Positions 5,774 through 43,326 of a stretch of 64,000 nt of DNA are shown piece after piece; within the stretch, counting starts at the first letter, position 1, and each line of letters opens with the position of its first letter. A program made the translations under genes and the position numbers. A model generated the notes under the pieces. The model saw only the letters and a list, made by a program, of their open reading frames with translations, did no database searches and was not told the DNA's origin. Where the stretch lies: NCBI GenBank assembly GCA_032691205.1, contig GCA_032691205.1_4541.1. One strand, given 5' to 3'. The DNA is from a phage.

Positions 5774-6023
5774 CTTTTTTCAACAATTGGCATACTTTAA
5801 AAAGACTTGCTGAATCCTTGCAAGGGTAGAAAGATGTACGATAATCACGTACGCCAACCTTGCGGATCTCGATGTTCTCGCATGTTGTTTGATCAAAGAT
5901 ATTTATTTCATCACGCCCCCTTATATAAACATAGTGGGGATGTATTAACGCATATTTTGCTAATCTGTAAAAAGCGTTATCTTTGAACGCGATCACGTGA
6001 CCTTTTAATTTGATGTAAAACAT
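5766..6023 (-). CDS. hypothetical protein
   Basis: ORF 85 aa downstream of unit 15. Confidence 0.6.
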   Translation of the reverse strand: MFYIKLKGHVIAFKDNAFYRLAKYALIHPHYVYIRGRDEINIFDQTTCENIEIRKVGVRDYRTSFYPCKDSASLFKVCQLLKKGG

Positions 6024-6041
6024 TCTACCACCTTACAAATA

Positions 6042-6096
6042 GCGGGAACTATTCCCGCTTTATGTAACATATTAACAAATTATTCGTTAATGTCAA
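6042..6096 (-). promoter_or_regulatory. early promoter + 5'-UTR hairpin unit 15
   Basis: Minus strand TTGACA-16nt-TAATAT, hairpin GCGGGAA-CTA-TTCCCGC. Confidence 0.6.
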
Positions 6097-6099
6097 GCC

Positions 6100-6372
6100 T
6101 TAAAGCAAAAACGCTACATCTTGCGCTTTTAGTGTAGTATCAACCATTTTCGGGCTTTTATAATCAACAAAGCGCGCGGTTTTTTCAATAGCGAAACCGA
6201 GATAATCTTGCTTGTTGAAATTACATTCTTTCTTAAATGTTTCCCGTGCAATGGCAATCGCTGCGTCCAGGGATAAACGCCCGTCAATATTGATATTAGC
6301 GAAAGATCCGCCACCGCTCATAGGTTTACCAGTTGTGCCAGCTACGATCATTGTTGCGCTATATGATGCCAT
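6100..6372 (-). CDS. hypothetical protein
   Basis: ORF 90 aa downstream of unit 16. Confidence 0.6.
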   Translation of the reverse strand: MASYSATMIVAGTTGKPMSGGGSFANINIDGRLSLDAAIAIARETFKKECNFNKQDYLGFAIEKTARFVDYKSPKMVDTTLKAQDVAFLL

Positions 6373-6397
6373 GATGATAATCTCTCTTCTGTTACGA

Positions 6398-6456
6398 GCG
6401 GGAAACCACTTCCCGCCCTATGTGATACATCTTATCAGGTTGTTGTTTGTTGTCAA
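6398..6456 (-). promoter_or_regulatory. early promoter + 5'-UTR hairpin unit 16
   Basis: Minus strand TTGACA-16nt-TAAGAT, hairpin GCGGGAA-ACCAC-TTCCCGC. Confidence 0.6.
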
Positions 6457-6462
6457 TACTTT

Positions 6463-6660
6463 TTATTCTATCCCTGCAATTTGATTAACGCGCTTGCATT
6501 TTGTAGCGTGCTGGTCTTCTGTAATGACTCCCATTTCTAACAGGGAATCAATGAAAGATAAAACCGTTTCATGATCATCCTGGGGATGACTGAACTCAGT
6601 AAAACCGTTTACTATTACGTTGATTTGTCCAGCTTTCGCCACAATGTGCAATGTTGCCAT
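6463..6660 (-). CDS. hypothetical protein
   Basis: Track ORF 6463..6750 trimmed to the ATG at 6660 downstream of hairpin 17. Confidence 0.55.
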   Translation of the reverse strand: MATLHIVAKAGQINVIVNGFTEFSHPQDDHETVLSFIDSLLEMGVITEDQHATKCKRVNQIAGIE

Positions 6661-28369: not shown

Positions 28370-28975
28370 ATGCAACATAGTGTAGTAGTCAATATGCCGA
28401 ATAGTGGGGATAAATCTTTTGGTGTCCCTGCTAAAAAAGTGTGGAAAGCCCATTTTCATCTTACTTTATCTAACGTTAGTTCTGAAGAGTTGATGAAAGC
28501 AGCTAAGATTATTGGTGCCAAATGCACAACAATTGATTTACATCGGGATACAAAGTCTCAACGTGATCGTATGTTAACAAAGTATCAAAGCGATCTCGAC
28601 ACTACTTTAATGTTGCAGTGTGTAGAAAAACTTGAGAATGCAGGTTTCAATGTTGTTCGTTACAAACTGGAACGAATGTTTAAACATGTTGCCTGTGTTC
28701 TTTTCATGGATCTAAGTAAAGAAAATTATGGAGAAGTTCACATTAAGACTTCAGCAAGTGATCCCGAAGTAGAAACAAACTTCTTCCGTATTTCTTCTAA
28801 TGCTGAAGAAATTGATTACCGATTTTATAATGCTCGCTTATATTCCGCAGAAGATAAGTTGCGTTTCAATGAAGCGTATGATATGCTCTTGAACAGTGGG
28901 ATACAGATAAAAGGCTACCACATAGAACAAGTTGTGGTAGACAGTAACTTAAATCTTGATGCGTGGTGGGCCTAG
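28370..28975 (+). CDS. hypothetical protein
   Basis: ORF 201 aa, RBS GAGGAGATAAG; first gene of the Ter-like block. Confidence 0.65.
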   Translation: MQHSVVVNMPNSGDKSFGVPAKKVWKAHFHLTLSNVSSEELMKAAKIIGAKCTTIDLHRDTKSQRDRMLTKYQSDLDTTLMLQCVEKLENAGFNVVRYKLERMFKHVACVLFMDLSKENYGEVHIKTSASDPEVETNFFRISSNAEEIDYRFYNARLYSAEDKLRFNEAYDMLLNSGIQIKGYHIEQVVVDSNLNLDAWWA

Positions 28976-28976
28976 T

Positions 28977-29633
28977 ATGACAATAAAACATATTTCTTTT
29001 GATGTATGGAATACTCTTATTTCTGCCAATCAAAACTATGCAGATGCACGTACGCACACTATTGCTACATATGGTAGAATGTCTGAACGTGCGGCAAAAG
29101 AAGCATATAAAGATGCCAAAGAAATTATGGATAATGCTGCACTAAATGGGTGTGCAGAAGGTGTAGCATATGCATGGAATATGTTGGGAAGAAAGATAGG
29201 TTTAACCCCTGTAGAATCTGCACAAATGCGTTTTGAGTGTGAGCAATGGTTTCTTAAATTTCCTCCACATATCGCTTTAGATTTGCCAGTTTGTTTGCTA
29301 TACTTGTCTGGTAAATATGATCTTAGTATTAAAAGCAATACTAATTTTATATCTGGGGATATTTTGCGTCGTGCTTGTATGTTCGACAGTTGGAATTGTT
29401 TTGAATTTATGCATTTTTCAGACGAACATCTGTTATGTAAACCAGATCCTAGATTCTTTGTTAGGACCGCCACATATTCAAGCATTCCTTTGAAGGCTGA
29501 AGAGATTTTACATGTTGGGGACAGCGAAGAATTTGATGGTAAATGTGTTGACATAGGGATTAACTTCTGTCATATTAAGAACCCTAACGATTTACTAGAG
29601 AAACTTAAAAGAGGAGAAATTGTAAATGCGTAA
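28977..29633 (+). CDS. HAD-superfamily-like hydrolase (divergent)
   Basis: ISFDVWNTL (motif I with the second Asp replaced) and LHVGDSEEFDGK (motif IV-like). Confidence 0.4.
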   Translation: MTIKHISFDVWNTLISANQNYADARTHTIATYGRMSERAAKEAYKDAKEIMDNAALNGCAEGVAYAWNMLGRKIGLTPVESAQMRFECEQWFLKFPPHIALDLPVCLLYLSGKYDLSIKSNTNFISGDILRRACMFDSWNCFEFMHFSDEHLLCKPDPRFFVRTATYSSIPLKAEEILHVGDSEEFDGKCVDIGINFCHIKNPNDLLEKLKRGEIVNA

Positions 29634-30453
29634 TCAAACTCAAATTTTTGCAAATAAATTTGATGACCTGGAAACTGCTACTTTTGATATCAAAGACTAT
29701 TCAAAATTGAAATTTGGTTGTAACCAAGCTGCGCGTCGTATGGGTAAAGAATTGGCACTTCAGTTTTTTGCTCAAGTGGCAATGAAACATATTGGGGAAC
29801 AATTTGTTATCATCCCTTCTCCTTATAACCATGTGCACAATGCTGCAACAATGATGACAGATCATTTTATTAATTACTTTAATATGTTGCAAGCACAATA
29901 TGATCAAGGTCGTTCAGCAGAACTGGATATTATTCATCGTAAAGTTAGCTATATCAACGATTATGGTTTCTTGGATAAAGCTAGTCGTAAGAAACTTATT
30001 GATGGGGATACATTCTACTGCAACAAAGAATTCTGGGGTGATAAGAAGCTTGTGTTCATTGATGATGTAAATATCACCGGAACTCATGAAGACAAACTGA
30101 TTGAGATTCTTGATGAAAATCAAGTTAAAAATGATGTTTACTTCTTGTATTTTGCAAAATATGAAGGTAATCAAGCAGATACTGAAGCTAAACTGAATTT
30201 TAACTACATCAATACACCAGAAGCGTTTGTTAAAATGATTAATGAAGAACGTGATGCACAGTGTCTTGTTCGTCCTATTAAGTATCTTATGGGCCAAAAT
30301 CACGAAGACTTCAAAATCATTCTTAGCCAATTGCCACACTACTATGTAGAGCAACTTTTCTTCGGATGTTTGGGAGAAGGTTACAACCGAATTTCAAAGT
30401 ATGCTGAAAACTTTGAATTCTTGGATCGTTACACAAAACAACACATTCTGTAA
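29626..30453 (+). CDS. phosphoribosyltransferase-like protein
   Basis: PRPP-binding signature KKLVFIDDVNITGTHEDKL. Confidence 0.55.
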   Translation: MRNQTQIFANKFDDLETATFDIKDYSKLKFGCNQAARRMGKELALQFFAQVAMKHIGEQFVIIPSPYNHVHNAATMMTDHFINYFNMLQAQYDQGRSAELDIIHRKVSYINDYGFLDKASRKKLIDGDTFYCNKEFWGDKKLVFIDDVNITGTHEDKLIEILDENQVKNDVYFLYFAKYEGNQADTEAKLNFNYINTPEAFVKMINEERDAQCLVRPIKYLMGQNHEDFKIILSQLPHYYVEQLFFGCLGEGYNRISKYAENFEFLDRYTKQHIL

Positions 30454-30466
30454 TAAGGAGCTAAAA

Positions 30467-30940
30467 ATGCTTAAAATGAAAACAGGTAATCTTATTGATG
30501 CCGCTAAAGCAGGTGAAGTAACTGTTATTGCTCATTGTTGCAATTGTATGTGTAATATGGGAGCAGGAATTGCTCCGCAAATTAAACGAGCATTCCCTTA
30601 TGCATATGCGGCAGATTTAGACACAATGGCTGGTGATCAAAGTAAGTTAGGTTCTTTTAGTTTAGGGGTGCCAGACGAACAATCAGACCCTTTGGTATAT
30701 AATCTATACGGGCAATACCGTTACGGATACAATGCTAAAGGTCGTCAGTTGGACTATGATGCACTTTACGATGCACTAATAGCTATGGCTAATGATTTGC
30801 TTCTCCGTGACCAAAAATGTAAGATAGGTTTACCTATGATTGGAGCGGGACATGCCGGAGGTAATTGGGCTATCATCCAAGTGATGATTGAAGAAACTTT
30901 AGTAAAAACAGGTCACGATGTGACTATTTATAAACTTTAA
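30467..30940 (+). CDS. macro-domain protein (ADP-ribose binding/hydrolase)
   Basis: Start MLKMKTGN with RBS TAAGGAG; EVTVIAHCCNCMCNMGAGIAPQIKRAFP and IGLPMIGAGHAGG. Confidence 0.65.
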   Translation: MLKMKTGNLIDAAKAGEVTVIAHCCNCMCNMGAGIAPQIKRAFPYAYAADLDTMAGDQSKLGSFSLGVPDEQSDPLVYNLYGQYRYGYNAKGRQLDYDALYDALIAMANDLLLRDQKCKIGLPMIGAGHAGGNWAIIQVMIEETLVKTGHDVTIYKL

Positions 30941-30952
30941 GAGGAGATTAGT

Positions 30953-31174
30953 ATGGGTGTTTTTGCAGGTATTGTTGCAGTGGTAAGCTTTTTTGTTATT
31001 GCTTTTATGCTTAGTTTGATTCCAGCTTGGTTACTGTTGCTGGCTTACAACTATGTTGCTGAAGTTATGGGTCATGCAGATATCACTGTCCCAGTAACCT
31101 TCTGGACCGTGGTTTGTGTTTCGTTTATTTTGGCGGTATTACGAGGAATCTTTTCCTCTCATTCAACAAAATAA
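30953..31174 (+). CDS. hypothetical small membrane protein
   Basis: 73 aa, two predicted TM helices. Confidence 0.55.
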   Translation: MGVFAGIVAVVSFFVIAFMLSLIPAWLLLLAYNYVAEVMGHADITVPVTFWTVVCVSFILAVLRGIFSSHSTK

Positions 31175-31177
31175 GTG

Positions 31178-31236
31178 TTGACATAGTTCTTAAAAAGAGT
31201 AAGATATATCACATGAAGCGGGGAATAGTTCCCCGC
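31178..31236 (+). promoter_or_regulatory. early-type promoter + 5'-UTR hairpin unit (only plus-strand copy), upstream of terC
   Basis: TTGACA-16nt-TAAGAT then hairpin GCGGGGAA-TAG-TTCCCCGC (31218-31236), RBS AGAGGAGAA. Confidence 0.6.
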
Positions 31237-31253
31237 AAAGAGAGGAGAAAAGA

Positions 31254-32228
31254 ATGCAACTCGGTTTCCCAATTATTGATGTAGTTGTTTTAGTTGGTAT
31301 TTTAGCATTGTCTATTGGTATCGATTTCTTTGGTCATAAAGAGAATAAAGAAATTGGAATTAAATCTGCTTTGCTTTGGTCTGTTTTTTGGATTGCTTTA
31401 GCTTTAGGGTATTACGCATTCATTTGGGTAGAACATGGTAAAGAGTTTGCCGCGCTTTTCCTAAGTGGCTATGTGTTGGAAAAGAGTCTTTCTGTAGATA
31501 ACCTAATGGTGTTCATGGCAATTTTTGCAAGCTTTGGAATTAAGAGCACACATCTCCAACATAAGATTCTACTTTGGGGGATTGCAGGAGCCATTGTCTT
31601 CCGAGGTATTTTTGTTGCAGCAGGGACCGCTTTGTTTAACCTTCATTGGTCGGTCCAAGTGTTGTTCGGTTTGATTGTAGCTTGGTCTGCCGTGGCTATC
31701 ATCAAAGGTGGTGACGAAGAAGAGGATATTGATTACTCTAAACATTGGGCTGTTCGTTTAGTAGGTAAAGTTCTGCCTGTGCACAATGCACTGGATGGTG
31801 AAAAGTTCATCACCATTAAGAATGGTATTAAATATGCAACTCCTGCTCTTCTTTGTGTGTTTGTTATTGAGCTTACAGATATTGTCTTCTCTTTTGATTC
31901 AGTTCCGGCTGTGATCGGTGTGACACAAGAACCTCTGCTAGTTTATTCTGCAATGCTGATGGCTGTTCTTGGTTTACGTGCACTTTTCTTTGTGTTAAGT
32001 GTAGCTGTGAAATATCTGGTTCACTTAGAGAAAGCTGTTGCTGTGGTTCTGGTGTTTGTTGGTGCTAAACTTATGTATCACCCGTTCGGTGAAACACTTC
32101 ATGCCAAGTGGTCATTCCTCCCGCATGATATTTCCCCTAACGTAAGTCTGATGATTGTTCTAGGCACATTATCTCTTGGTGTTATTGCAAGCTTTATCTT
32201 CCCTGAAAAAGAAGAAGCTACTGTTTAA
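31254..32228 (+). CDS. terC: TerC-family integral membrane protein
   Basis: 324 aa multi-pass; conserved LEKSLSVDNLMVF and ELTDIVFSFDSVPAVIGV. Confidence 0.65.
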   Translation: MQLGFPIIDVVVLVGILALSIGIDFFGHKENKEIGIKSALLWSVFWIALALGYYAFIWVEHGKEFAALFLSGYVLEKSLSVDNLMVFMAIFASFGIKSTHLQHKILLWGIAGAIVFRGIFVAAGTALFNLHWSVQVLFGLIVAWSAVAIIKGGDEEEDIDYSKHWAVRLVGKVLPVHNALDGEKFITIKNGIKYATPALLCVFVIELTDIVFSFDSVPAVIGVTQEPLLVYSAMLMAVLGLRALFFVLSVAVKYLVHLEKAVAVVLVFVGAKLMYHPFGETLHAKWSFLPHDISPNVSLMIVLGTLSLGVIASFIFPEKEEATV

Positions 32229-33853: not shown

Positions 33854-34444
33854 ATGTATACCGAGAGAGACTTGCAACTCTTGTGGTGGGAAGTGATGCA
33901 GGAAATAAAAGAAGATTTTCCTGTTTACTACAACATGTTACGTGAAGCAGGATATAAAGCTTGTGTTAGAAACAAAGTGAATAACTCTTTCGGTTGGTGC
34001 AACTACCGAGATAAAATTGTTGTTGTAAATTGGCACTTGCATAAGAACTCTACAAGAGATATGATCGTGGATACAATGAAGCACGAAATTGCTCATGCTA
34101 TTGATGGTTGTATGGGTAAGTTTAGTAGACACGGTGCTCATTGGCAAAAACTGGCAGCAGAGTTAGGGGCTAATCCTAAAGCCACTTCCAAAGAGCCGTT
34201 GAACCACGAATATAAATATGTTCTTGTTCTGGTAGATAGGTTTGCGACAAGATGTGTTAGAGGTTATAATCGTAAACCTAATCGCATGTACCCAGGTAAG
34301 CAACCTAATATGTGGTTGAAATCAGATAAAGAAGGGACCGAAGGAAAATTATGGTTGTATAAATGGGACGATTGGGTTAAAGTAGCTAAAGAGTACGGTG
34401 TTTCACCATATATAAGAGATGCAGAAGAGGAGAATGAAGAATGA
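33854..34444 (+). CDS. SprT-like zinc metallopeptidase
   Basis: HExxH motif MKHEIAHAIDGCMGKFSRHGAHWQ. Confidence 0.5.
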   Translation: MYTERDLQLLWWEVMQEIKEDFPVYYNMLREAGYKACVRNKVNNSFGWCNYRDKIVVVNWHLHKNSTRDMIVDTMKHEIAHAIDGCMGKFSRHGAHWQKLAAELGANPKATSKEPLNHEYKYVLVLVDRFATRCVRGYNRKPNRMYPGKQPNMWLKSDKEGTEGKLWLYKWDDWVKVAKEYGVSPYIRDAEEENEE

Positions 34445-35553
34445 CAAGTCCATTTTTAAAAGCAGCTACTGGCGGTCAGAAGAAGCCTGAAATGAGCGTA
34501 TTTGCTGCAACAACAGATGCAAGTAAATCTGTATTCGCTCCAAGCGTGTTAGATGCCAGTCCTGTTTATGCACCAGCGGCACCGCAAGAAGTTCCAGTTT
34601 TGCCTTCTATGACCCGACAAGAGATCGAAGAGATTGGGGCAGAGGCAGGAACAACCTTGCGTTCCTTGAATGCCGAGGTATTAAAACATCAACGTAGTAA
34701 TCAAGGCGATCAGATGAGTGAACGACTCACAGCTTTGATTAAACAGGCAAAACAACTTGATCCAAACTCTATTAAACAAAGCAAGGGTATTACTAAACTC
34801 ATTAAAAAAGTTATGGGTATGAAAGAAGATCTGTTTGGGGAGTTTGATAATGTTAATAACCGTATTGAAGAGTTGGTAAAAAACCTTCAAATGGATATTC
34901 GCAAAGAAGAAGATTCCTTGGTATATCTTGAAAAGCTACATCAAGCTATTGGACAATATGCTGCAAGTTTGAACCGAGATATGCAGCTTCTAACAGCAAC
35001 CTATGAAAAAGAAGAACAAGCTTTGGCTGCTCTTCCAGAAGATGCAGTAGAACAGCGACAAGTGATCCGAGATACTTTGGATCTTCTGGAGATTCGTATT
35101 GCAGATTTAAAAGCATTGCGCCTACTGTGTGTCCAAATGGGACCGCGTGTACAAGGTATGCAAAAAGTTTCTGCAAGCTTAATGCGATCTGCGCGTAACA
35201 TAGTAAATAATGTTATTCCTGCTTACTCTGCTAACTTCTCAATGTATATCGAGAGCTTACGTCAAATGAAAGCAGCAGAGACGCAGAATAACGTTCTTGA
35301 TGAATTTAACCTGGCAATTAAACTGGGTAGCGATCTTGCCACACAGAATCAGATCGAAGCAGCAGCCCTGGCTAACCGCCAAGTGCTCGATATTGAAACT
35401 CTGCGTCACGATCAGGAAAACTTGGTTAAAATGTTGGAAGAAACTAACCGCATCAATACGGAAGCCCGTGCTGCTCGTGTTGATTATATTAATGAAGTTC
35501 AATCTCTGGAAGACGGGATGGTAGCTGCTGTGAAACGAGGGCTTGGTAAATGA
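34441..35553 (+). CDS. TelA-like (toxic anion resistance family) protein
   Basis: 370 aa, almost entirely helical/coiled-coil; size and composition fit the TelA/KlaA family. Confidence 0.4.
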   Translation: MTSPFLKAATGGQKKPEMSVFAATTDASKSVFAPSVLDASPVYAPAAPQEVPVLPSMTRQEIEEIGAEAGTTLRSLNAEVLKHQRSNQGDQMSERLTALIKQAKQLDPNSIKQSKGITKLIKKVMGMKEDLFGEFDNVNNRIEELVKNLQMDIRKEEDSLVYLEKLHQAIGQYAASLNRDMQLLTATYEKEEQALAALPEDAVEQRQVIRDTLDLLEIRIADLKALRLLCVQMGPRVQGMQKVSASLMRSARNIVNNVIPAYSANFSMYIESLRQMKAAETQNNVLDEFNLAIKLGSDLATQNQIEAAALANRQVLDIETLRHDQENLVKMLEETNRINTEARAARVDYINEVQSLEDGMVAAVKRGLGK

Positions 35554-35920: not shown

Positions 35921-36116
35921 CTACGATAACGACCCTAATATTATCCAGTTAACCCGACAAGAACTGATCACAATCATTGAAGATGCTTTTATTGATGGTT
36001 GGAATACACAAGATAATGACTGGGGTGGACCCGAAGCTTTTCTGGAACATCATAAAGCTTATGGAGAATTTTGTGAAACCACTGTAGCTCTTGATAATCT
36101 GAAGGAGGGTTTGTAA
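35913..36116 (+). CDS. hypothetical protein
   Basis: ORF 67 aa, RBS GAGGAGGAAGAAG. Confidence 0.5.
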   Translation: MFNYDNDPNIIQLTRQELITIIEDAFIDGWNTQDNDWGGPEAFLEHHKAYGEFCETTVALDNLKEGL

Positions 36117-36679
36117 TGGGTTGTTTTAGTTTTTTGTGCAAAGAATCGGGCAAAGCTGCCCTTTCTACTTCTTTCGACGGATCACCTTGCTACCTCTTTC
36201 TTTTGAAAGACGGTGTTGTTATTGAAGAGATGTATGGCAACTATGATAGTTATGGTTGTGTTTTCTCTGGAAAAGAGGATGAAAATGGCGTTCGTGAACG
36301 GTTCGAATGGGCTATGGATTGGAGTAAGGTTTGTGATTTGATGCATTCCTCAAATCCAAGGGACGGTATCGCTATGGTGCTGGAAGAGTACTTTACAGGT
36401 GAAATCCCTACAGAACAATCTGACGGAGATCCTAACCAAGGTTGGGGTGATGGTGAAGAAGATCCAGATTGTTTTTTCAGCACAGAAAAGAATAAGTTTA
36501 AACGTGTTGACAACCCTTATCACAAAGTGCATAATACTCTCATTGAAACAGAAGATGACAAGATGGAAATTGAAGAAGATGATCCTCTTGTAACACTTCC
36601 TATAAGTGAGTTACAAAAGATCACTAAGGAAGCTTACGATTTGGGCTTCAAAATTGGTAGAGGAGGTATGCGTGTTTAG
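36116..36679 (+). CDS. hypothetical acidic protein
   Basis: ORF 187 aa, RBS GAAGGAGG. Confidence 0.6.
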   Translation: MGCFSFLCKESGKAALSTSFDGSPCYLFLLKDGVVIEEMYGNYDSYGCVFSGKEDENGVRERFEWAMDWSKVCDLMHSSNPRDGIAMVLEEYFTGEIPTEQSDGDPNQGWGDGEEDPDCFFSTEKNKFKRVDNPYHKVHNTLIETEDDKMEIEEDDPLVTLPISELQKITKEAYDLGFKIGRGGMRV

Positions 36680-36950
36680 ATTCAATATTCAAGAAGAAAA
36701 AAGTCAGGATTTACCTATTGCTTTCGAAGATCTTGACGTAGGGGCCACATTCATGTATTATGATGCCTATGAAGACGCAGGGTTGGATACCTACCGCAAC
36801 TTGGTGTTCATTAAAAATTCCACAAACAGTGCGATCTGTATTAATGGATCACTAGCACAACGAGGCTATACTCATTGCATCCCACCAGATACAAATATGG
36901 TGGAAGTAGATTTAGAAGTTACCAATATTACACTTAAGAAGGAGAAATAA
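36673..36950 (+). CDS. hypothetical protein (cassette copy A, small partner)
   Basis: GTG start with RBS GGAGG; ...FEDLDVGATFMYYDAYEDAGLD...LEVTNITLKKEK is paralogous to 37972..38241. Confidence 0.55.
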
Positions 36951-36951
36951 T

Positions 36952-37746
36952 ATGTCCGAGAAAATCAGCCTGAAAAAACGTCAAGAAAACCTTGCTTTCT
37001 CTCTGAAAAAGAATAAGAACCTGAATGAAGGTAAGATTGTTCTTCGTGTAGCATGTGCTCTAGATATTTCTGGTAGTATGCATGGTCTATATTCTAGTGG
37101 AGTAGTGAGTGATTTTGTAGGTAAACTGCTTCCTTTTGGTATGCTGTTCGACGATAATCAACAAATTGATATGTGGGCCTTCAATACGAGTTCCCAAGAG
37201 CTTACTCCAGCAACAGCAGACGTTTACGATGACTATGTTGGTAAATGTATGCGTAATGTTCGTATTGGAGGTGGAACAAATTACGCCCCTGTAATGGCAG
37301 ATATCTACGATGAGTATTTTGGCACTGTTACCAAATATATTACCACTAAACAAGTGGTACAAGAGGAGGCTCCAAAGAAAGGCTTCTTTAATCGTCTGCT
37401 TGGTAAAACTGAAACAGTATCTGTAGAGCGTGAAAAGGTTGTAGCTGTGTCTGAACCAGGTGCTGACGTTACCCCTGGTGTTGTATTCTTCCAGACGGAT
37501 GGTGAGAATGGTGATCCTAGTGCTGTTCGTCGTCTTATTGAAGAGAATAAGAATAAACCTATTTATTGGTTCATGGTTGGCGTTGGTAATGAGAAGTTTG
37601 GCTTCCTGAAAGAACTGGCAAATGCTTATGATAATGTTGGTTTTATTGGCATTAAAGATTTAGACTTGACAGATTCAGAGCTTTATGACAAACTCTTATC
37701 TGAAGAGTTCGGAGAGTGGGTTGTTAAAGTAGGTGCTAAAAAATGA
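36952..37746 (+). CDS. vWA-domain protein (TerY-like)
   Basis: N-terminus MSEKISLKK; MIDAS motif ALDISGSM. Confidence 0.6.
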   Translation: MSEKISLKKRQENLAFSLKKNKNLNEGKIVLRVACALDISGSMHGLYSSGVVSDFVGKLLPFGMLFDDNQQIDMWAFNTSSQELTPATADVYDDYVGKCMRNVRIGGGTNYAPVMADIYDEYFGTVTKYITTKQVVQEEAPKKGFFNRLLGKTETVSVEREKVVAVSEPGADVTPGVVFFQTDGENGDPSAVRRLIEENKNKPIYWFMVGVGNEKFGFLKELANAYDNVGFIGIKDLDLTDSELYDKLLSEEFGEWVVKVGAKK

Positions 37747-37991
37747 TCGACGAGCTTGCCTCTCAAGTCATAGAAAATTATTGGCGTGAGAGAGAAGCTT
37801 TCATTATGCGCAGTCTCAAAGAGTATTTCATTGGGACTGTGCGAATGGAAGATATTGTAAGTAGAGTAGAGATTCATGTATGGCCTGATTATGAAGAATG
37901 GGTTGACAAAGAAAATGAAAATGCTATAATTCTTCGTATATACAAACCGGAGATAACATTAGGAGGAAGAAGTGTTAAACTTCGAAATTGA
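37743..37991 (+). CDS. hypothetical protein
   Basis: ORF 82 aa. Confidence 0.5.
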   Translation: MIDELASQVIENYWREREAFIMRSLKEYFIGTVRMEDIVSRVEIHVWPDYEEWVDKENENAIILRIYKPEITLGGRSVKLRN

Positions 37992-38241
37992 TGAGCAAAA
38001 AGTAAATAAACGATGCCTTACCATTAAAGATTTGGATGTAGGAGATACTTTCGTCTATGAAAATGCATTTGACGAAAATGGTTTAGACCTTAGTGAAATC
38101 ATTGTTTATTTAAAAGTAGATGATGGGGAAAATGATTATTCTGCTGTAGAACTAAACCATCATGCACAATTAGTATCAATCCAAAACACATCTAAGCTTT
38201 TGGAAGTAGAATTGACTGTAACTGGTATTACACTTAAATAA
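37972..38241 (+). CDS. hypothetical protein (cassette copy B, small partner)
   Basis: GTG start with RBS AGGAGGAAGAA; ...IKDLDVGDTFVYENAFDENGLD...LTVTGITLK is paralogous to 36673..36950. Confidence 0.55.
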   Translation: MLNFEIDEQKVNKRCLTIKDLDVGDTFVYENAFDENGLDLSEIIVYLKVDDGENDYSAVELNHHAQLVSIQNTSKLLEVELTVTGITLK

Positions 38242-38256
38242 TAGAGGAGACAAAAG

Positions 38257-38859
38257 ATGACTGATAAAATTTCCCTGAAAAAAGGCTCTAGCGAAAAAAT
38301 TTCCCTGAAGAAAGTTGCTCCGGCTCTGAAAGAACTGCGCCTGGAATTCTCTTGGAAATCTGATTCTAAACTGGATCTGGATGTAAGTGCACTGGTTTGT
38401 CGTCATAATGCCGCTGGCAATCCTGAAATGCTGTCCGCACGTCATCTGGTTTGCTATGCTAACAAGTTTGATCCTGAACGTTCTACCTTCGCTGGTGACG
38501 ATGTTCGTGATGGGACTGGCAGCATGGAGCAGATTGATATTACTCTGGCTAAAATCTCTCCTGATGCACAAGAGATTGCCTTTGTTCTGACCATTGATGA
38601 TGATACAGGTCTGAAACGTTTTGGTCATGCTTCTGAAGGTATGCTTAAAATCTTCGACTCCGAGCGTAATGTGGAAATTCTGGATTTTGACTTCCTGGCT
38701 CCTGAAGTAGCTGGCAACACAATCTGCCACGTGGCTTCCCTGGTTCGTGAAGATGGAGAATGGAAGCTGAAAGCATATGGTGTAGGTAAAGCTGGTCTGG
38801 ATATTTGCGATGTGGTGATGGCCTTCGGTGGTAAAAAAGAATGGTATGAATGTCCATAA
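38257..38859 (+). CDS. terD: TerD-family protein
   Basis: MTDKISLKKGSSEKISLKK N-terminus, DLDVSALV, GDDVRDGTG, IAFVLTIDDD, REDGEWKLKAYGVG fit TerD along its length. Confidence 0.75.
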   Translation: MTDKISLKKGSSEKISLKKVAPALKELRLEFSWKSDSKLDLDVSALVCRHNAAGNPEMLSARHLVCYANKFDPERSTFAGDDVRDGTGSMEQIDITLAKISPDAQEIAFVLTIDDDTGLKRFGHASEGMLKIFDSERNVEILDFDFLAPEVAGNTICHVASLVREDGEWKLKAYGVGKAGLDICDVVMAFGGKKEWYECP

Positions 38860-38877
38860 TAATTAACAAATGATTTT

Positions 38878-38900
38878 GAGGGGGAGAAATCCCCCTCTTG
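38878..38900 (+). terminator. terminator-like hairpin after terD
   Basis: GAGGGGGA-GAAA-TCCCCCTC; short T-run. Confidence 0.4.
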
Positions 38901-38926
38901 CAATAAAGCCTCTATCGTGTTATACT
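38898..38926 (+). promoter_or_regulatory. sigma70-like promoter
   Basis: TTGCAA, 17 nt, TATACT. Confidence 0.5.
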
Positions 38927-38958
38927 AGAAGTTCGTTAACTTAAAAAGGAGGCAAAAT

Positions 38959-39480
38959 TTGCTGATAAAAAACTTTGTAACAGTTGCGTTACTATCCTTA
39001 ACTGCTTTTACATTTACACCTGTTGTGGCGAAAGCCGAAGCTGCAAACGTAAAAACCGCTAAAGTAGTTCACAAATGTACAAAGCAATATAATGATAAAA
39101 TTCTATTAGCTTGTGCAATTTACGCAGAAGGTCGCGGTCTGGGTAAAAAAGGAATGAATGCCGTTGGGAATGTGGTAATCAACAGAAGAAATGATGCCTA
39201 CTTCCCTAACACAGTCAAGGGAGTCTTGTTCCAGAAAGGGCAATTCTCATATGCGAAAACTTTTAACGTGACAGAGAAAGATAAGTGGCAGGAAGCAAAA
39301 GCAATAGCGGAGCGTTTACTTTATTTAGAGAAACATTTTCCTGAATTGCGGTCTGTTTTAGATGTTACTAAAGGTGCTCTATACTTCAAGAAACGGAATA
39401 TAAGGACACACTGGGAGCGTGATATGCGTCTTGTTTATCGAGATAAAGTGCATGGTTTCTATCTACCAAAGGGGAGTTAA
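38959..39480 (+). CDS. secreted cell-wall hydrolase (SleB/CwlJ-like)
   Basis: TTG start with RBS AAGGAGG; signal peptide; LACAIYAEGRGLGKKGMNAVGNVVINRR...VLFQKGQFSY. Confidence 0.55.
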   Translation: MLIKNFVTVALLSLTAFTFTPVVAKAEAANVKTAKVVHKCTKQYNDKILLACAIYAEGRGLGKKGMNAVGNVVINRRNDAYFPNTVKGVLFQKGQFSYAKTFNVTEKDKWQEAKAIAERLLYLEKHFPELRSVLDVTKGALYFKKRNIRTHWERDMRLVYRDKVHGFYLPKGS

Positions 39481-39481
39481 A

Positions 39482-39766
39482 ATGCAAGAAGATAATACTG
39501 TTGTTGTAGCAAGTTACCTGGTTGTCGGTCTTACCGAAGAGGACGTATACTACACCCGTAAACATTTGGAAGCATACGCTACTTTGTTTATGGAAGATGA
39601 AAAAGATGTAGATAAATATAGCATTGATATGATCAACGACAGTATTTATCCTTGTATGGTTCTTAAAGTAGATGCTGTGCTGTGGGAGCGTTTTGCAAGG
39701 ACTCATGATGCTGTAGAATGCTCCGCAGTAATGTCTCAAAACAACATTTTAGGGGAGATTCACTGA
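39482..39766 (+). CDS. hypothetical protein
   Basis: ATG 39482 with RBS AAGGGGAG. Confidence 0.55.
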   Translation: MQEDNTVVVASYLVVGLTEEDVYYTRKHLEAYATLFMEDEKDVDKYSIDMINDSIYPCMVLKVDAVLWERFARTHDAVECSAVMSQNNILGEIH

Positions 39767-40181: not shown

Positions 40182-40745
40182 ATGATTTATTATATTACTC
40201 CCTATCTGACAGGAAATATCGGCAAGGCTATCAATGAAGCTATTGCCGTTCTTCCAGATGATAGTTGGGTGTGCTTAAGAGATACCGATACAATGTTCCT
40301 CCTGCCTGATCAACCATCTATGCTTGAAGAGCTTGTTATGTCAAACCCGCCTTTTGATGTAATAGGTGCAACTTGTAACAGGTTAGGTAGTGGTTATCAG
40401 CTTTTCTCTAACCAAATTAACGATGATCCAAATATTCTAAACCATATAGAATATGCTAAGATTGCAAGAGAATATCATAAAGTGAGTGTTGAAGAAGTTC
40501 CTTTCGGAACACCTCTGGCAGGTTTCTTTTTGCTTTTTAGAAAATCATTGTGGAATGAAGTTCCTTTCGAAGAAAAATCTATCCAATTCGACCTAATTTT
40601 CTCTCGCACTTTACATGAAAAAGGAAAGAGGTTAGGATTGATGCGGGGAATGTATCTGTTTCACATTTACAGATTAGGTCAAACAAATCCTCAACGGTCT
40701 ATACATCATTTATTACACTGTCACGATCACAGTAAAACTATCTAG
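40182..40745 (+). CDS. putative glycosyltransferase (GT-A-like)
   Basis: 187 aa; CLRDTDTMF as a possible DxD motif. Confidence 0.35.
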   Translation: MIYYITPYLTGNIGKAINEAIAVLPDDSWVCLRDTDTMFLLPDQPSMLEELVMSNPPFDVIGATCNRLGSGYQLFSNQINDDPNILNHIEYAKIAREYHKVSVEEVPFGTPLAGFFLLFRKSLWNEVPFEEKSIQFDLIFSRTLHEKGKRLGLMRGMYLFHIYRLGQTNPQRSIHHLLHCHDHSKTI

Positions 40746-40753
40746 GAGAGAAA

Positions 40754-41437
40754 ATGGAAAATATTAAAATCGGAGTGGGTGTTATCACTGTAGGTGTCCG
40801 TCCACTTAAAGACTATCTTGTAACAGATCCACATGCAGATTTTCGAGTATTCAACGATCCAGATCGTAAAGGTGTAGCTTACGCCAGGAATGAACTTATG
40901 CACCAGTTTTATGAAGAAGGTTATGATTATTGGTTTATTTTTGACGACGATTGCTACCCAATCATGGAGGGATGGGAAACATATTTTGTAGATCAAGCTG
41001 TCTCTGGAGGATGGGATTTCTTTGGTATGCCGGAGTATTTCAAAGATAAAGTTGTTGGGAGTAAAGGAGAAGTTATTCTCTGGGAACTTGCAATGTGTCA
41101 ATTTGCAATGTATTCTCGTGCCGTTGTTGAGAAGATGGGTTATTTCCGCCCTTACACTCACGGCTATGGTTTTGAAGATGCTGAATGGGTACACCGTTTG
41201 AAAGCTGCTGGTTTGAATCAGGGTATTCAGGCAATACCTTGTCCACTTCGTATCATGGCTTATATCCACCCAGACGATGTTTTTGGAAACAATCCTATGC
41301 CTTTTGCTAATCTGACAAAAGAAGAGAAAGAAGCTGCTATTGGCATTAACTGGGAAGAATATAAAGCGTCTTTAGAAGATATTAAAAATGGGAAAATCCG
41401 AATTTCTTATGAGGAGGCACTGGCACATGTCAAATAA
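40754..41437 (+). CDS. glycosyltransferase (GT-A fold, DxD type)
   Basis: GVAYARNELMHQFYEEGYDYWFIFDDDCYP. Confidence 0.5.
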   Translation: MENIKIGVGVITVGVRPLKDYLVTDPHADFRVFNDPDRKGVAYARNELMHQFYEEGYDYWFIFDDDCYPIMEGWETYFVDQAVSGGWDFFGMPEYFKDKVVGSKGEVILWELAMCQFAMYSRAVVEKMGYFRPYTHGYGFEDAEWVHRLKAAGLNQGIQAIPCPLRIMAYIHPDDVFGNNPMPFANLTKEEKEAAIGINWEEYKASLEDIKNGKIRISYEEALAHVK

Positions 41438-42374
41438 AAAATGGACTAAACTGAAAATTGATGCAAAACCTCACAGTGGTTGTGATTATCATCGTATTGT
41501 TATGCCATTTAACAACAATAATCTTCAACCTAAGAAAGATGTTGTTGTGTTTAACCGTATTCACTCTAAAGGTGCAGAATATGTTTTGTCCCTGAAACGT
41601 CAAGGTGTTAAGATTGTTGTAGATTTAGATGATTTCTACCAACTTAATCCAGAACATTATTTAGCAAGTCTATACGAGTCAAACACCCATTCTATTGTAG
41701 CTATGGTTAAGCTTGCTGATGTGGTCATTGTGACTACGGAATACTTGGCATATAAGATCCGTCACTTAAATAGGAATGTTGTTGTGATCCGAAATGCACT
41801 TCCTTTTGATAGCGGACAATTCACTTTGTCAAATGATCGTTCATCCGGTACCCCTGTCGTATGGGCTGGCGGTGCTAGTCACGAACCCGACTTACGACTA
41901 GTCTCTAATACTTTCGACGATGAACTTCTTACTATTGCGGGATATGAGGCATCACAGAGCATCACGGGACAAGAGTGGATTAAGATTCGCAGAAATTTAC
42001 CAAATGCCAAATATAAAGCCGCTGTAAAAGATTTAGATAATTACATGAGTGTTTACGAGGGTCATGCTATTGCTATAGCTCCTCTGGTAGATAACGATTT
42101 TAATAATTGTAAAAGTAATCTCAAAATCTTGGAAGCTGGGGCAAAAGGTATTCCAATTGTTTGTTCTAAGGTATTACCTTATTTTAACCCTGTAGATGCT
42201 CGCGCTGTTGCTTACGCAGAGAATAAAGCAGAATGGCATTACGAAATTGTTAAGCTTCTTCGCAATCCGAACTATCGGGAAGATCGTGGCTTGTTCTTAG
42301 CGGAACATGTTCGAACACATTATAATCTGGCAGATGCAAACGAATTGCGACGCCAGGTTATTGAAAGTTTGTAG
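41427..42374 (+). CDS. glycosyltransferase (GT-B-like), paralog 1
   Basis: Start MSNKKW; C-terminal KSNLKILEAGAKGIPIVCS; N-terminus CDYHRIVMPF. Confidence 0.5.
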   Translation: MSNKKWTKLKIDAKPHSGCDYHRIVMPFNNNNLQPKKDVVVFNRIHSKGAEYVLSLKRQGVKIVVDLDDFYQLNPEHYLASLYESNTHSIVAMVKLADVVIVTTEYLAYKIRHLNRNVVVIRNALPFDSGQFTLSNDRSSGTPVVWAGGASHEPDLRLVSNTFDDELLTIAGYEASQSITGQEWIKIRRNLPNAKYKAAVKDLDNYMSVYEGHAIAIAPLVDNDFNNCKSNLKILEAGAKGIPIVCSKVLPYFNPVDARAVAYAENKAEWHYEIVKLLRNPNYREDRGLFLAEHVRTHYNLADANELRRQVIESL

Positions 42375-42381
42375 GTGAAGT

Positions 42382-43326
42382 ATGGGACAAATAATTCTTG
42401 ACAATCGTAACGGAATCAATTATAGTGTCTGCGATTTCCATAGGGTAGTGCTGCCTTACTCAAGGCAGTTCTCTTCACAACCTAAACACAACGTTTTCGT
42501 TTTTAACGGAGTGCCAACAAAAGGTAAAGAGGGCTTTTTAGCCCTTAAAAACCTGGGCTTTAAAATGGTTATGGATTTGGATGACTCTTTAGTTATTCCA
42601 AAAGGACACATGTTAGAAGGTATTTTTGAATCAGGTATTCGTGAACATTTAAAATGGTTTTTAGAGCACAGTGATCTTGTTACAACTACGACACCTGCCT
42701 TGCAAGTTGAACTTTCACAATACAATGATAATGTGCACATAATCCCTAATGGACTTCCTTACGATGAAGGTCAATTTGTGTTGACCCGTGATCGCTACTC
42801 CAAAACTCCATTAGTCTGGGCTGGAAGTGAAACACATAAACAAGATTTGGCTATCTTGCCCGATTTTGGTAAAGATCTTACAATATGTGGTTTTCGTAGG
42901 GATTCTGAAGTTTTAAGTAGTCGTGAATGGTCTTTAATCAGGGAAAATGTAGCACCAACTTGTGTTTATGAAGGTGTAAGACCATATGCCAACTACATGG
43001 AATCTTACGATGGTCATCAAATCAGTCTTGCACCATTGATCGATAACGTGTTTAATAATGCAAAAAGCAATCTTAAAATTCTTGAGGCAGGTGCTAAGGG
43101 TTTACCTTTAATCTGCTCTCCTCGTGAGAATTATCATACACAAGAGTTTAAAGATTTGTTATTCTTTGCTGAAACACCTTCCGAGTGGAAAGATATTACG
43201 GAATACTTATTAAGTGCTCCCGATGTTTGCATGGAGAAAGGATTAGCATTAGCTAAGTATGTCAGGACTCATTATCACATTGATGTGTTGAATGAGCGTC
43301 GTAGACTTTTATTTGAGGAGCTATAA
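42382..43326 (+). CDS. glycosyltransferase (GT-B-like), paralog 2
   Basis: CDFHRVVLPY and KSNLKILEAGAKGLPLICS, collinear with 41427..42374. Confidence 0.5.
   Translation: MGQIILDNRNGINYSVCDFHRVVLPYSRQFSSQPKHNVFVFNGVPTKGKEGFLALKNLGFKMVMDLDDSLVIPKGHMLEGIFESGIREHLKWFLEHSDLVTTTTPALQVELSQYNDNVHIIPNGLPYDEGQFVLTRDRYSKTPLVWAGSETHKQDLAILPDFGKDLTICGFRRDSEVLSSREWSLIRENVAPTCVYEGVRPYANYMESYDGHQISLAPLIDNVFNNAKSNLKILEAGAKGLPLICSPRENYHTQEFKDLLFFAETPSEWKDITEYLLSAPDVCMEKGLALAKYVRTHYHIDVLNERRRLLFEEL

Follow-up and report, generated by a model that had tools for sequence, protein, structure and literature searches.

The stretch of DNA analysed here, a 64,000-nt phage contig (GCA_032691205.1_4541.1 of NCBI GenBank assembly GCA_032691205.1; hereafter the window), carries two small genes, sA and sB, each followed by a larger gene whose product begins with an ISLKK-type N-terminus: a TerF-like vWA protein in the one case and a TerD-domain protein in the other. 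A first-pass annotation took this layout for a cassette of small gene and effector gene that had been duplicated whole, after which the effector was replaced, and suggested that the small protein could be a specificity or chaperone subunit of interchangeable effectors. Does the repeated layout record such an event, and what might the small proteins do beside vWA and TerD? Our analysis indicates that a copy of the small gene alone was probably placed directly ahead of the vWA gene, and that the two partners are co-components of one tellurite-resistance-like (Ter-type) module; these evolutionary and anatomical parts of our reading are well supported, and we hold them with good confidence. Our favoured overall reading, which we regard as somewhat probable, makes the small proteins accessory or adaptor subunits that are produced along with their partners in this module.

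Anatomy of the two small genes and their promoters

Both GTG-initiated genes of about 90 codons are present as originally described, each with its downstream partner. sA (36672-36950, + strand) and sB (37972-38241, + strand) encode proteins of 92 and 89 amino acids (aa), with 15-18 acidic (D+E) against 7-8 basic (K+R) residues and isoelectric points (pI) of 4.4 and 4.3, respectively. When compared by BLASTP (36672-36947 vs. 37972-38238), they were identical at 32 of 93 positions (34%) over their full length, with E = 2e-14, and the motifs quoted in the first-pass annotation (DLDVG.TF.Y..A[YF].. GLD ... EV.L.VT.ITLK) were seen in the alignment. The hidden Markov model of phrog_11278, an unannotated PHROG to which no function is assigned there, covered both proteins whole (sA residues 1-92 on profile positions 1-92 of 92, 4.2e-51; sB residues 1-89 on positions 1-89 of 92, 7e-45), so that their paralogy was already implicit in that clustering. 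Given the full-length alignment, the common motifs and the common PHROG, the observed paralogy is real and far beyond chance. The start of sA had been placed one base too late, at 36673, a frame that contains stops; the annotation of phage ESCO13 and the N-termini of homologs support 36672.

The two genes are tightly coupled to those that follow them. The GTG of sA is preceded by GAGGAGG and that of sB by AGGAGG. A single nucleotide separates sA from the vWA gene, whose Shine-Dalgarno (SD) sequence sits within the last codons of sA, and 15 nt separate sB from the TerD gene. Between the vWA gene and sB there is an 82-aa open reading frame (ORF; 37743-37991, + strand; phrog_22387), absent from the first-pass annotation, whose ends overlap the vWA stop (ATGA) and the start of sB and which contains the promoter of the sB-TerD pair.

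We found a promoter ahead of each pair. That of sA is sigma-70-like (TTGACA-17-CATAAT, 11/12 consensus positions; 36507-36535, + strand) and lies 137 nt before the gene, in the 3' part of the gene for a 187-aa protein; the site is conserved in phage phi92 (L002, 4836-4864) and in contig L014 (5836-5864), and phage phiWec179 has an equivalent, TTGACA-17-GATAAT, 32 nt before its A copy. The promoter of sB is a perfect sigma-70 consensus (TTGACA-16-(TGc)TATAAT, 12/12; 37903-37930, + strand), located 42 nt before the gene and inside the 82-aa ORF. No other site in the window reaches 12/12; the + strand holds eight sites of at least 11/12 vs. 1.7 expected per strand. Across four diverged lineages both hexamers stay unchanged, whereas the spacer and flanks differ. 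In the outgroup phages described below, TTGACT-17-TATGAT occurs 58 nt before the small gene, within the end of the vWA gene. As each pair has its own conserved sigma-70-like promoter, two units of a small gene plus its partner are a fair description of the locus. The idea of two cassettes stands to that extent, with promoter, small gene and closely coupled partner recurring in both pairs; the further idea that they were duplicated as a two-gene unit does not, as shown in the following sections.

Just after the TerD stop we detected a G+C-rich hairpin with an 8-bp stem (GAGGGGGA gaaa UCCCCCUC; 38878-38897, + strand; -17.2 kcal/mol, z = -2.8), which probably marks the end of the sB-TerD transcription unit and which went unflagged in a terminator scan due to its weak T-run. 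A promoter-like sequence with a TG element (TTGCAA-17-TATACT) overlaps the hairpin and extends directly beyond it (hairpin and sequence together, 38878-38926); it precedes a gene for a SleB-type cell wall hydrolase (38959-39480).

The partner proteins and the ISLKK N-terminus

The gene downstream of sA (36952-37746, + strand) encodes a 264-aa vWA-TerF-like protein that matched PF10138 with 130.1 bits (cut-off 29.4; E = 1.6e-37). It carries DISGSM, a DxSxS motif of the metal ion-dependent adhesion site (MIDAS) type; ALDISGSM at residues 35-42 aligns with LDASGSM of TerF, with DxSxS at the end of the first vWA strand. The gene downstream of sB (38257-38859, + strand) encodes a 200-aa TerD-domain protein (PF02342; 98.9 bits, cut-off 25.3, E = 3.2e-28), of which residues 5-183 match solved TerD structures (2KXT, E = 1.5e-15; 3IBZ, E = 2.9e-14). 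In the work on 2KXT, Klebsiella TerD was reportedly found to bind Ca2+ through acidic loops.

The N-termini of the two partners read as first reported, MSEKISLKK for vWA and MTDKISLKK for TerD. Their resemblance is confined to an N-terminal stretch of ~29 residues (E = 0.013, from one comparison), beyond which the proteins are unrelated and belong to different Pfam families, a result at odds with the segmental duplication of a two-gene unit. The common N-terminus had been treated as a signature of the cassette. However, it was also found in bacterial TerF, in a stand-alone vWA protein and in TerD, TerE and TerZ, none of which are accompanied by a small gene. The PF10138 model begins at residue 31 of the phage vWA protein and leaves a 30-aa N-terminal extension, KISLKK...FSLKK (36952-37041), uncovered. 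From residue 4 onward, the phage protein aligns by BLASTP with IncHI2 TerF from residue 177 onward (L006, 8001-8105, equivalent to TerF 177-211); the TerF segment ahead of LDASGSM reads RISLEKKLETRSPRLVSLAKKASVSLTK, with RISLEKK...VSLAKK in the linker before the vWA domain. The stand-alone vWA protein, which is encoded on a Caballeronia plasmid and starts MITLEKR, has the N-terminus MITLEKRAAKVSIVLEKR and aligns with the phage extension. Bacterial TerD, TerE and TerZ start VSLSKGGNVSLSK, and here the double motif is the start of the TerD domain itself, aligned with 2KXT from residue 5. No small gene was present upstream in the bacterial TerF and Caballeronia vWA clusters examined. The pattern 'ISLxK ... 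hSLxK', being kept in bacterial homologs and lying outside the Pfam model, represents an unmodelled but conserved pre-vWA extension. The ISLKK N-terminus is an old hallmark of both partner families and not specific to the cassette. The likeness of the pre-vWA extension to the first hairpin of TerD is suggestive, albeit statistically weak, and the double 'hSLxK' segment may be a relic or else serve both proteins in making contacts.

A stretch of ~80 nt spanning the 3' end of the small gene, the SD sequence and the 5' end of the partner gene is ~78% identical between the two pairs, which could be taken as a footprint of cassette duplication or gene conversion. We rejected this interpretation, as synonymous-site matches are no higher there than elsewhere, including the central motif, and Ser is encoded by AGC in one copy vs. 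TCC in the other; the similarity is explained by what the stretch encodes, namely the C-terminal strand of the small protein and the N-terminus of the partner, both conserved, with the SD sequence between them.

According to Pfam, bacterial TerF comprises a TerD domain (residues 1-161) and a vWA domain (residues 212-412). As TerF thus joins TerD, a linker and vWA in one chain, the phage vWA and TerD proteins plausibly act together. They also occur together in every phage context long enough to hold both, and we therefore consider them co-components rather than alternatives. The proposal that one partner had replaced the other, or that the two are interchangeable effectors, is not supported by this pattern.

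Distribution, predicted fold and probable history of the small-protein family

We searched for relatives of the small proteins by word-indexed searches and by a full HMMER scan of 1.84 billion representatives. The scan gave 37 matches, the genuine ones amounting to ~15 clusters of 87-93-aa proteins, and every contig or record examined for the family had phage-type gene content. Huge repeat proteins (He_PIG/Big_9, DUF11, ankyrin) also appeared in the profile search; we judged them spurious, as they belong to heterogeneous families and their scores were summed from many short stretches, and they provide no evidence for an Ig-like fold. A vWA-TerF-like protein is encoded by 210 phage records, 127 of which also match the small protein; among the matches listed, all of the latter are of Stephanstirmvirinae type, a few of them under other host names. 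Campylobacter phage A150/A110a, Acinetobacter phage vB_AbaM_ABPW7 and Klebsiella phage ZCKP1 are coliphage-like in this region though filed otherwise: ABPW7 matches the window at 99% DNA identity, the vWA protein of ZCKP1 matches that of the window at 99.6% identity, and the A110a vWA protein scores the same as that of phi92. The host labels of these records may be wrong, or the samples mixed. Klebsiella phage FBKp34 has vWA-TerF-like and TerD genes and no recognisable small gene. The products gp129 and gp130, encoded upstream of its vWA gene, were considered as divergent small proteins and not accepted (probabilities of 3.9 and 0.3%, respectively).

Every family member with a readable context lies directly upstream of a vWA-TerF-like or a TerD gene, and none was found apart from such a gene. 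The small gene and its partner overlap at start and stop or are separated by 1-32 nt in all lineages. The position itself varies. The order small-vWA-TerD was observed in phi92, Klebsiella phage 05F01 and contigs L010/L011, and the order vWA-small-TerD in contigs L007, L008, L012, L013 and L021/L022; contig L009, which is cut upstream, shows a small gene followed by TerD. Both positions are occupied, and accompanied by an ORF of 80-82 aa, in the window, in phiWec179 and in the L017/L019 lineage (before vWA on L019/L020 and before TerD on L017/L018). The Phapecoctavirus-like metagenomic contig L014, from Logan SRR12532581, has two tandem copies before vWA (6001-6552) and one before TerD, that is, three, and copy number thus ranges from 1 to 3. 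The phiWec179 copy that adjoins vWA is the ortholog of the first L014 tandem copy, which indicates that the A site itself turns over.

Other neighbours (the 187-aa gene, the 82-aa ORF, a Band_7 gene) differ by lineage, while the small gene stays beside vWA or TerD. Orthologs of the 82-aa ORF (80-81 aa) are found in phiWec179, L014 and L017/L019, only in lineages having both small-gene positions, and are absent from phi92, 05F01 and the outgroup phages. The 187-aa protein (36116-36679; phrog_14928), which is acidic and has six Cys residues, is encoded directly before sA, and likewise in phi92 and L014. Contig L007, an outgroup phage, has a gene with a Band_7/SPFH domain after TerD (2095-2574), which is consistent with a membrane-proximal role of the module.

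We constructed neighbour-joining trees for vWA and for TerD, with the Caballeronia homologs as root, and another for the small proteins, which offer only ~90 aa; none of the trees carry support values. In the vWA and TerD trees, the metagenomic phages with a B copy only (L007, L013, L021 and L009) fall outside the phAPEC8/phi92 group, which includes Phapecoctavirus (A and B copies), phi92 (A), 05F01/L010 (A) and L008 (B). The small-protein tree has three clades: the A copies, the B copies of this group, and the outgroup copies. A search with an outgroup small protein (tblastn) found no B-only phage among isolated phages, and those lineages are known from metagenomic contigs only. Since only one small gene, located between vWA and TerD, occurs in the outgroup phages, the duplication appears to have involved the small gene alone and not a two-gene unit. 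The simplest reading of the gene orders and trees is that vWA-small-TerD is ancestral and that, when the group arose, an extra copy of the small gene by itself was placed ahead of vWA. In this scenario, the ancestor of the phAPEC8/phi92 group would have acquired the second copy just upstream of its vWA gene, after which the Phapecoctaviruses would have kept both copies, one metagenomic lineage would have come to carry three, and the phi92-like and 05F01-like phages would have retained only the upstream one. Given the short sequences and the absence of tree support, this order of events is probable rather than proven. The retention of both A and B orthologs in lineages that are only ~50% identical suggests distinct, non-redundant roles. 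The varying position, the copy number of 1-3 and the single copy in distant phages likewise speak against the two-gene-unit duplication that had been put forward.

An AlphaFold2 model built from 23 diverse sequences was confident, with a predicted local distance difference test (pLDDT) score of 85.5 and a predicted template modelling (pTM) score of 0.73; an earlier model from 8 close sequences (pLDDT 42.7) was discarded. The predicted structure is a small beta-barrel consisting mostly of strands with one short helix. It may be SH3-like, a likeness seen at low Z scores; the nearest known folds would then be small barrels such as the ribosomal L2 barrel, the KOW domain of EF-P/eIF5A, FeoA, the C-terminal domain of DtxR/IdeR, Tudor and HspQ. 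Nothing significant was found in the PDB with Foldseek. Of the significant matches in the viral set, just two carried names, the protein's own paralog in phAPEC8 and a related protein of Phapecoctavirus Ro121lw, the remaining ones being uncharacterised small phage proteins. Searches of Pfam and NCBIfam returned nothing significant for sA, sB, the 82-aa ORF or the 187-aa protein, and hhalign revealed no relationship of the small family to TerD, the 82-aa ORF or TerF. Sequence and fold are kept down to ~25% identity. The conserved positions (F4, G24, T26, F27, G37-L38-D39, K48 and A54) are mostly core or turn residues, and few conserved polar residues are on the surface.

Proposed role within the phage Ter module

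Nothing about the small proteins points to an enzyme, and little points to the binding of nucleic acids. The inference that asks for the fewest assumptions is an accessory role in which they bind other proteins. In the mechanism that we propose, each small copy would be made from a promoter-led, closely spaced or overlapping unit together with its downstream gene, and the small protein would aid the assembly or regulation of vWA and TerD, a 'split TerF', close to the membrane, the duplication having allowed each partner to gain a specialised copy. Sigma-70-type promoters would drive the module, which would serve superinfection exclusion or stress protection early in infection, as published proposals for phage Ter systems suggest. 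Physical binding of the small proteins to vWA or TerD has close to an even chance, perhaps a little under, of being correct. More specific forms of this idea are unlikely to hold in full: the small barrels might be dedicated adaptors that recognise the double 'K[IV]SLKK ... [IV]SLKK' N-terminal hairpin common to the phage vWA and TerD proteins, or their invariant G-L-D loop might be an acidic ligand of the vWA MIDAS, with the copies assembling the split TerF and being specialised per partner. From the earlier notion of a specificity or chaperone subunit we keep a partner or adaptor as our best guess and leave aside the interchangeable effectors, as vWA and TerD co-occur.

Several observations weigh against the adaptor role and the history to which it is tied. 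The whole family belongs to a single broad lineage of phages, whose vWA proteins are at least 50% identical to the one in the window, so that the conserved synteny could partly reflect shared descent and not function. In FBKp34 and in bacterial Ter clusters, vWA-TerF-like and TerD occur where no small gene can be recognised, and the small protein is thus not essential to the pair. The trees rest on sequences of ~90 aa and on neighbour joining without support values, and contig L008 is truncated upstream, leaving its 'B only' status uncertain.

In an alternative explanation, the small genes would be lineage-specific phage ORFs with an unrelated function, such as that of a host-takeover or anti-defence binder, and would owe their position only to inherited gene order. 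Small acidic phage proteins often inhibit host proteins, and the family's confinement to one lineage, its absence from FBKp34 and bacterial clusters and its few conserved polar surface residues are in keeping with such a function; however, the adjacency to vWA or TerD has outlasted shifts of position, changes in copy number (1-3) and turnover of the other neighbours, and overlaps or 1-32 nt gaps to the partner gene are kept in all lineages. We consider this explanation unlikely, though still to be reckoned with. Less probable again is that the small proteins regulate expression of the downstream gene, by translational coupling or by mRNA-binding autoregulation, and are not subunits of a complex. 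The tight coupling, with the vWA SD sequence inside the last sA codons, and the weaker GTG start codon of both small genes fit regulation of this kind, but the strong acidity of the proteins (pI 4.3-4.4) is unfavourable for nucleic-acid binding, and the maintenance of sequence and fold down to ~25% identity is more than a mere coupling ORF would need.

Whole-cassette duplication followed by effector replacement, with the small protein as specificity or chaperone subunit, we likewise regard as very improbable. It would account for two pairs of small gene and partner with a promoter each, for the ~78% DNA identity over the ~80-nt junction and for the common M[ST][ED]KISLKK of the partners. Yet the partners are unrelated past ~29 N-terminal residues, they co-occur on all contigs of sufficient length and form a single chain in bacterial TerF, the ISL[KE]K double motif is shared by bacterial TerF, stand-alone vWA and TerD/E/Z without a small gene, and outgroup phages have one small gene between vWA and TerD.

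The window is from a Phapecoctavirus, a phAPEC8/ESCO13-like E. coli phage, and its region 36000-39500 has 99-99.9% DNA identity to many Phapecoctavirus genomes (phAPEC8, ESCO13, nieznany and others). Members of this genus, which belongs to the subfamily Stephanstirmvirinae, are virulent E. coli myophages with genomes of ~150 kb. The ESCO13 counterparts of the five-gene region are gp221-gp225, all of them 'hypothetical' except the last, a 'tellurium resistance protein'. Both small-gene pairs form the end of a co-oriented cluster whose other members include a HAD-type hydrolase (28956-29633; TIGR02252, 1.5e-8), a ComF-like PRTase (29626-30453; PF15610 PRTase_3, 8.9e-42), a macro domain protein with weak similarity to DarG (30401-30940; Macro, 9.6e-5), a TerC integral membrane protein (31254-32228; PF03741, 3e-40) and a homolog of TelA, for toxic anion resistance (34441-35553; PF05816, 3.2e-33; phrog_5890), all on the + strand, as well as an SprT-like protein. 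TerC, TelA, TerD, a TerF-type vWA, PRTase and HAD are accordingly found on one strand between 28956 and 38859, the gene set of a Ter system. The HAD, PRTase and macro genes correspond to the 'nucleoside-like metabolite' arm of Ter systems. With a 73-aa membrane-like ORF and TerC, this arm occupies 28956-32228, in what amounts to a near-complete Ter system in a non-jumbo ~150-kb phage. PADLOC, which covers TerY-P and other catalogued anti-phage systems, gave no match at E<=0.01 for sA, sB, vWA, the 82-aa ORF, TerD, TelA, TerC or the 187-aa protein. Farther downstream, four consecutive genes (40182-43326) correspond to ESCO13 genes annotated as glycosyltransferases, and the last two (41388-42374 and 42382-43326) look paralogous from their common sequence motifs.

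Many pathogens, plasmids and large phages carry Ter clusters, and Anantharaman, Iyer and Aravind are said to have described a Ter-type stress response/exclusion system in 2012. In comparison to bacterial TerF (IncHI2 / O157 terZABCDEF), the phage vWA protein aligns with TerF 177-404, including the pre-vWA 'RISLEKK...', and the phage TerD is a standard domain, whereas the phage encodes the two domains separately, vWA first and TerD second, and places a small gene ahead of the two, between them or at both sites. Phage-encoded Ter systems (TerC, TelA, TerF-type vWA and TerD, with or without PRTase/HAD) are described in passages of Iyer et al. (2021; PMC7824862), and a Ter system is noted for Klebsiella phage phiKp34 in a preprint (bioRxiv 10.1101/2021.03.02.433402); superinfection exclusion or stress protection is proposed for such systems in the parts of these two sources that deal with them. 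As in these published systems, TerC, TelA, vWA-TerF-like, TerD, PRTase_3 and HAD are co-oriented here in a large virulent myophage, with vWA and TerD as neighbours; unlike them, phages of the window's type insert 1-3 small barrel genes beside vWA and TerD, a family that goes unmentioned in the relevant passages of both sources. Phage Ter clusters, TerD, the TerF-type vWA and the grouping of both small proteins in one PHROG were already known. What is new is the strict linkage of the small family to vWA and TerD, its variable copy number, likely history and predicted fold, the conserved promoters, and the recognition of the 'ISLKK' segment as an ancient, unmodelled vWA-TerF-like extension that mirrors the TerD N-terminus; to the unannotated phrog_11278 we thereby add the link to vWA-TerF-like and TerD and the fold prediction.

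The two diverged small genes are a genuine if modest addition to an established system, specific to their lineage and involving no effector swap, and current understanding of phage biology is unchanged by these results. The practical gain is likewise modest, in that two 'hypothetical proteins' in more than 100 coliphage genomes receive a context-based annotation and the sB-TerD unit is delimited by a conserved consensus promoter and a hairpin. A small protein that travels with vWA and TerD nevertheless provides a concrete handle on physical contacts in Ter systems, and the N-terminal double 'SLxK' segment common to two otherwise unrelated Ter proteins provides a second one. If true, the more specific adaptor reading, with recognition of the N-terminal hairpin or the MIDAS, would give Ter systems a previously unrecognised subunit and a recognition motif.

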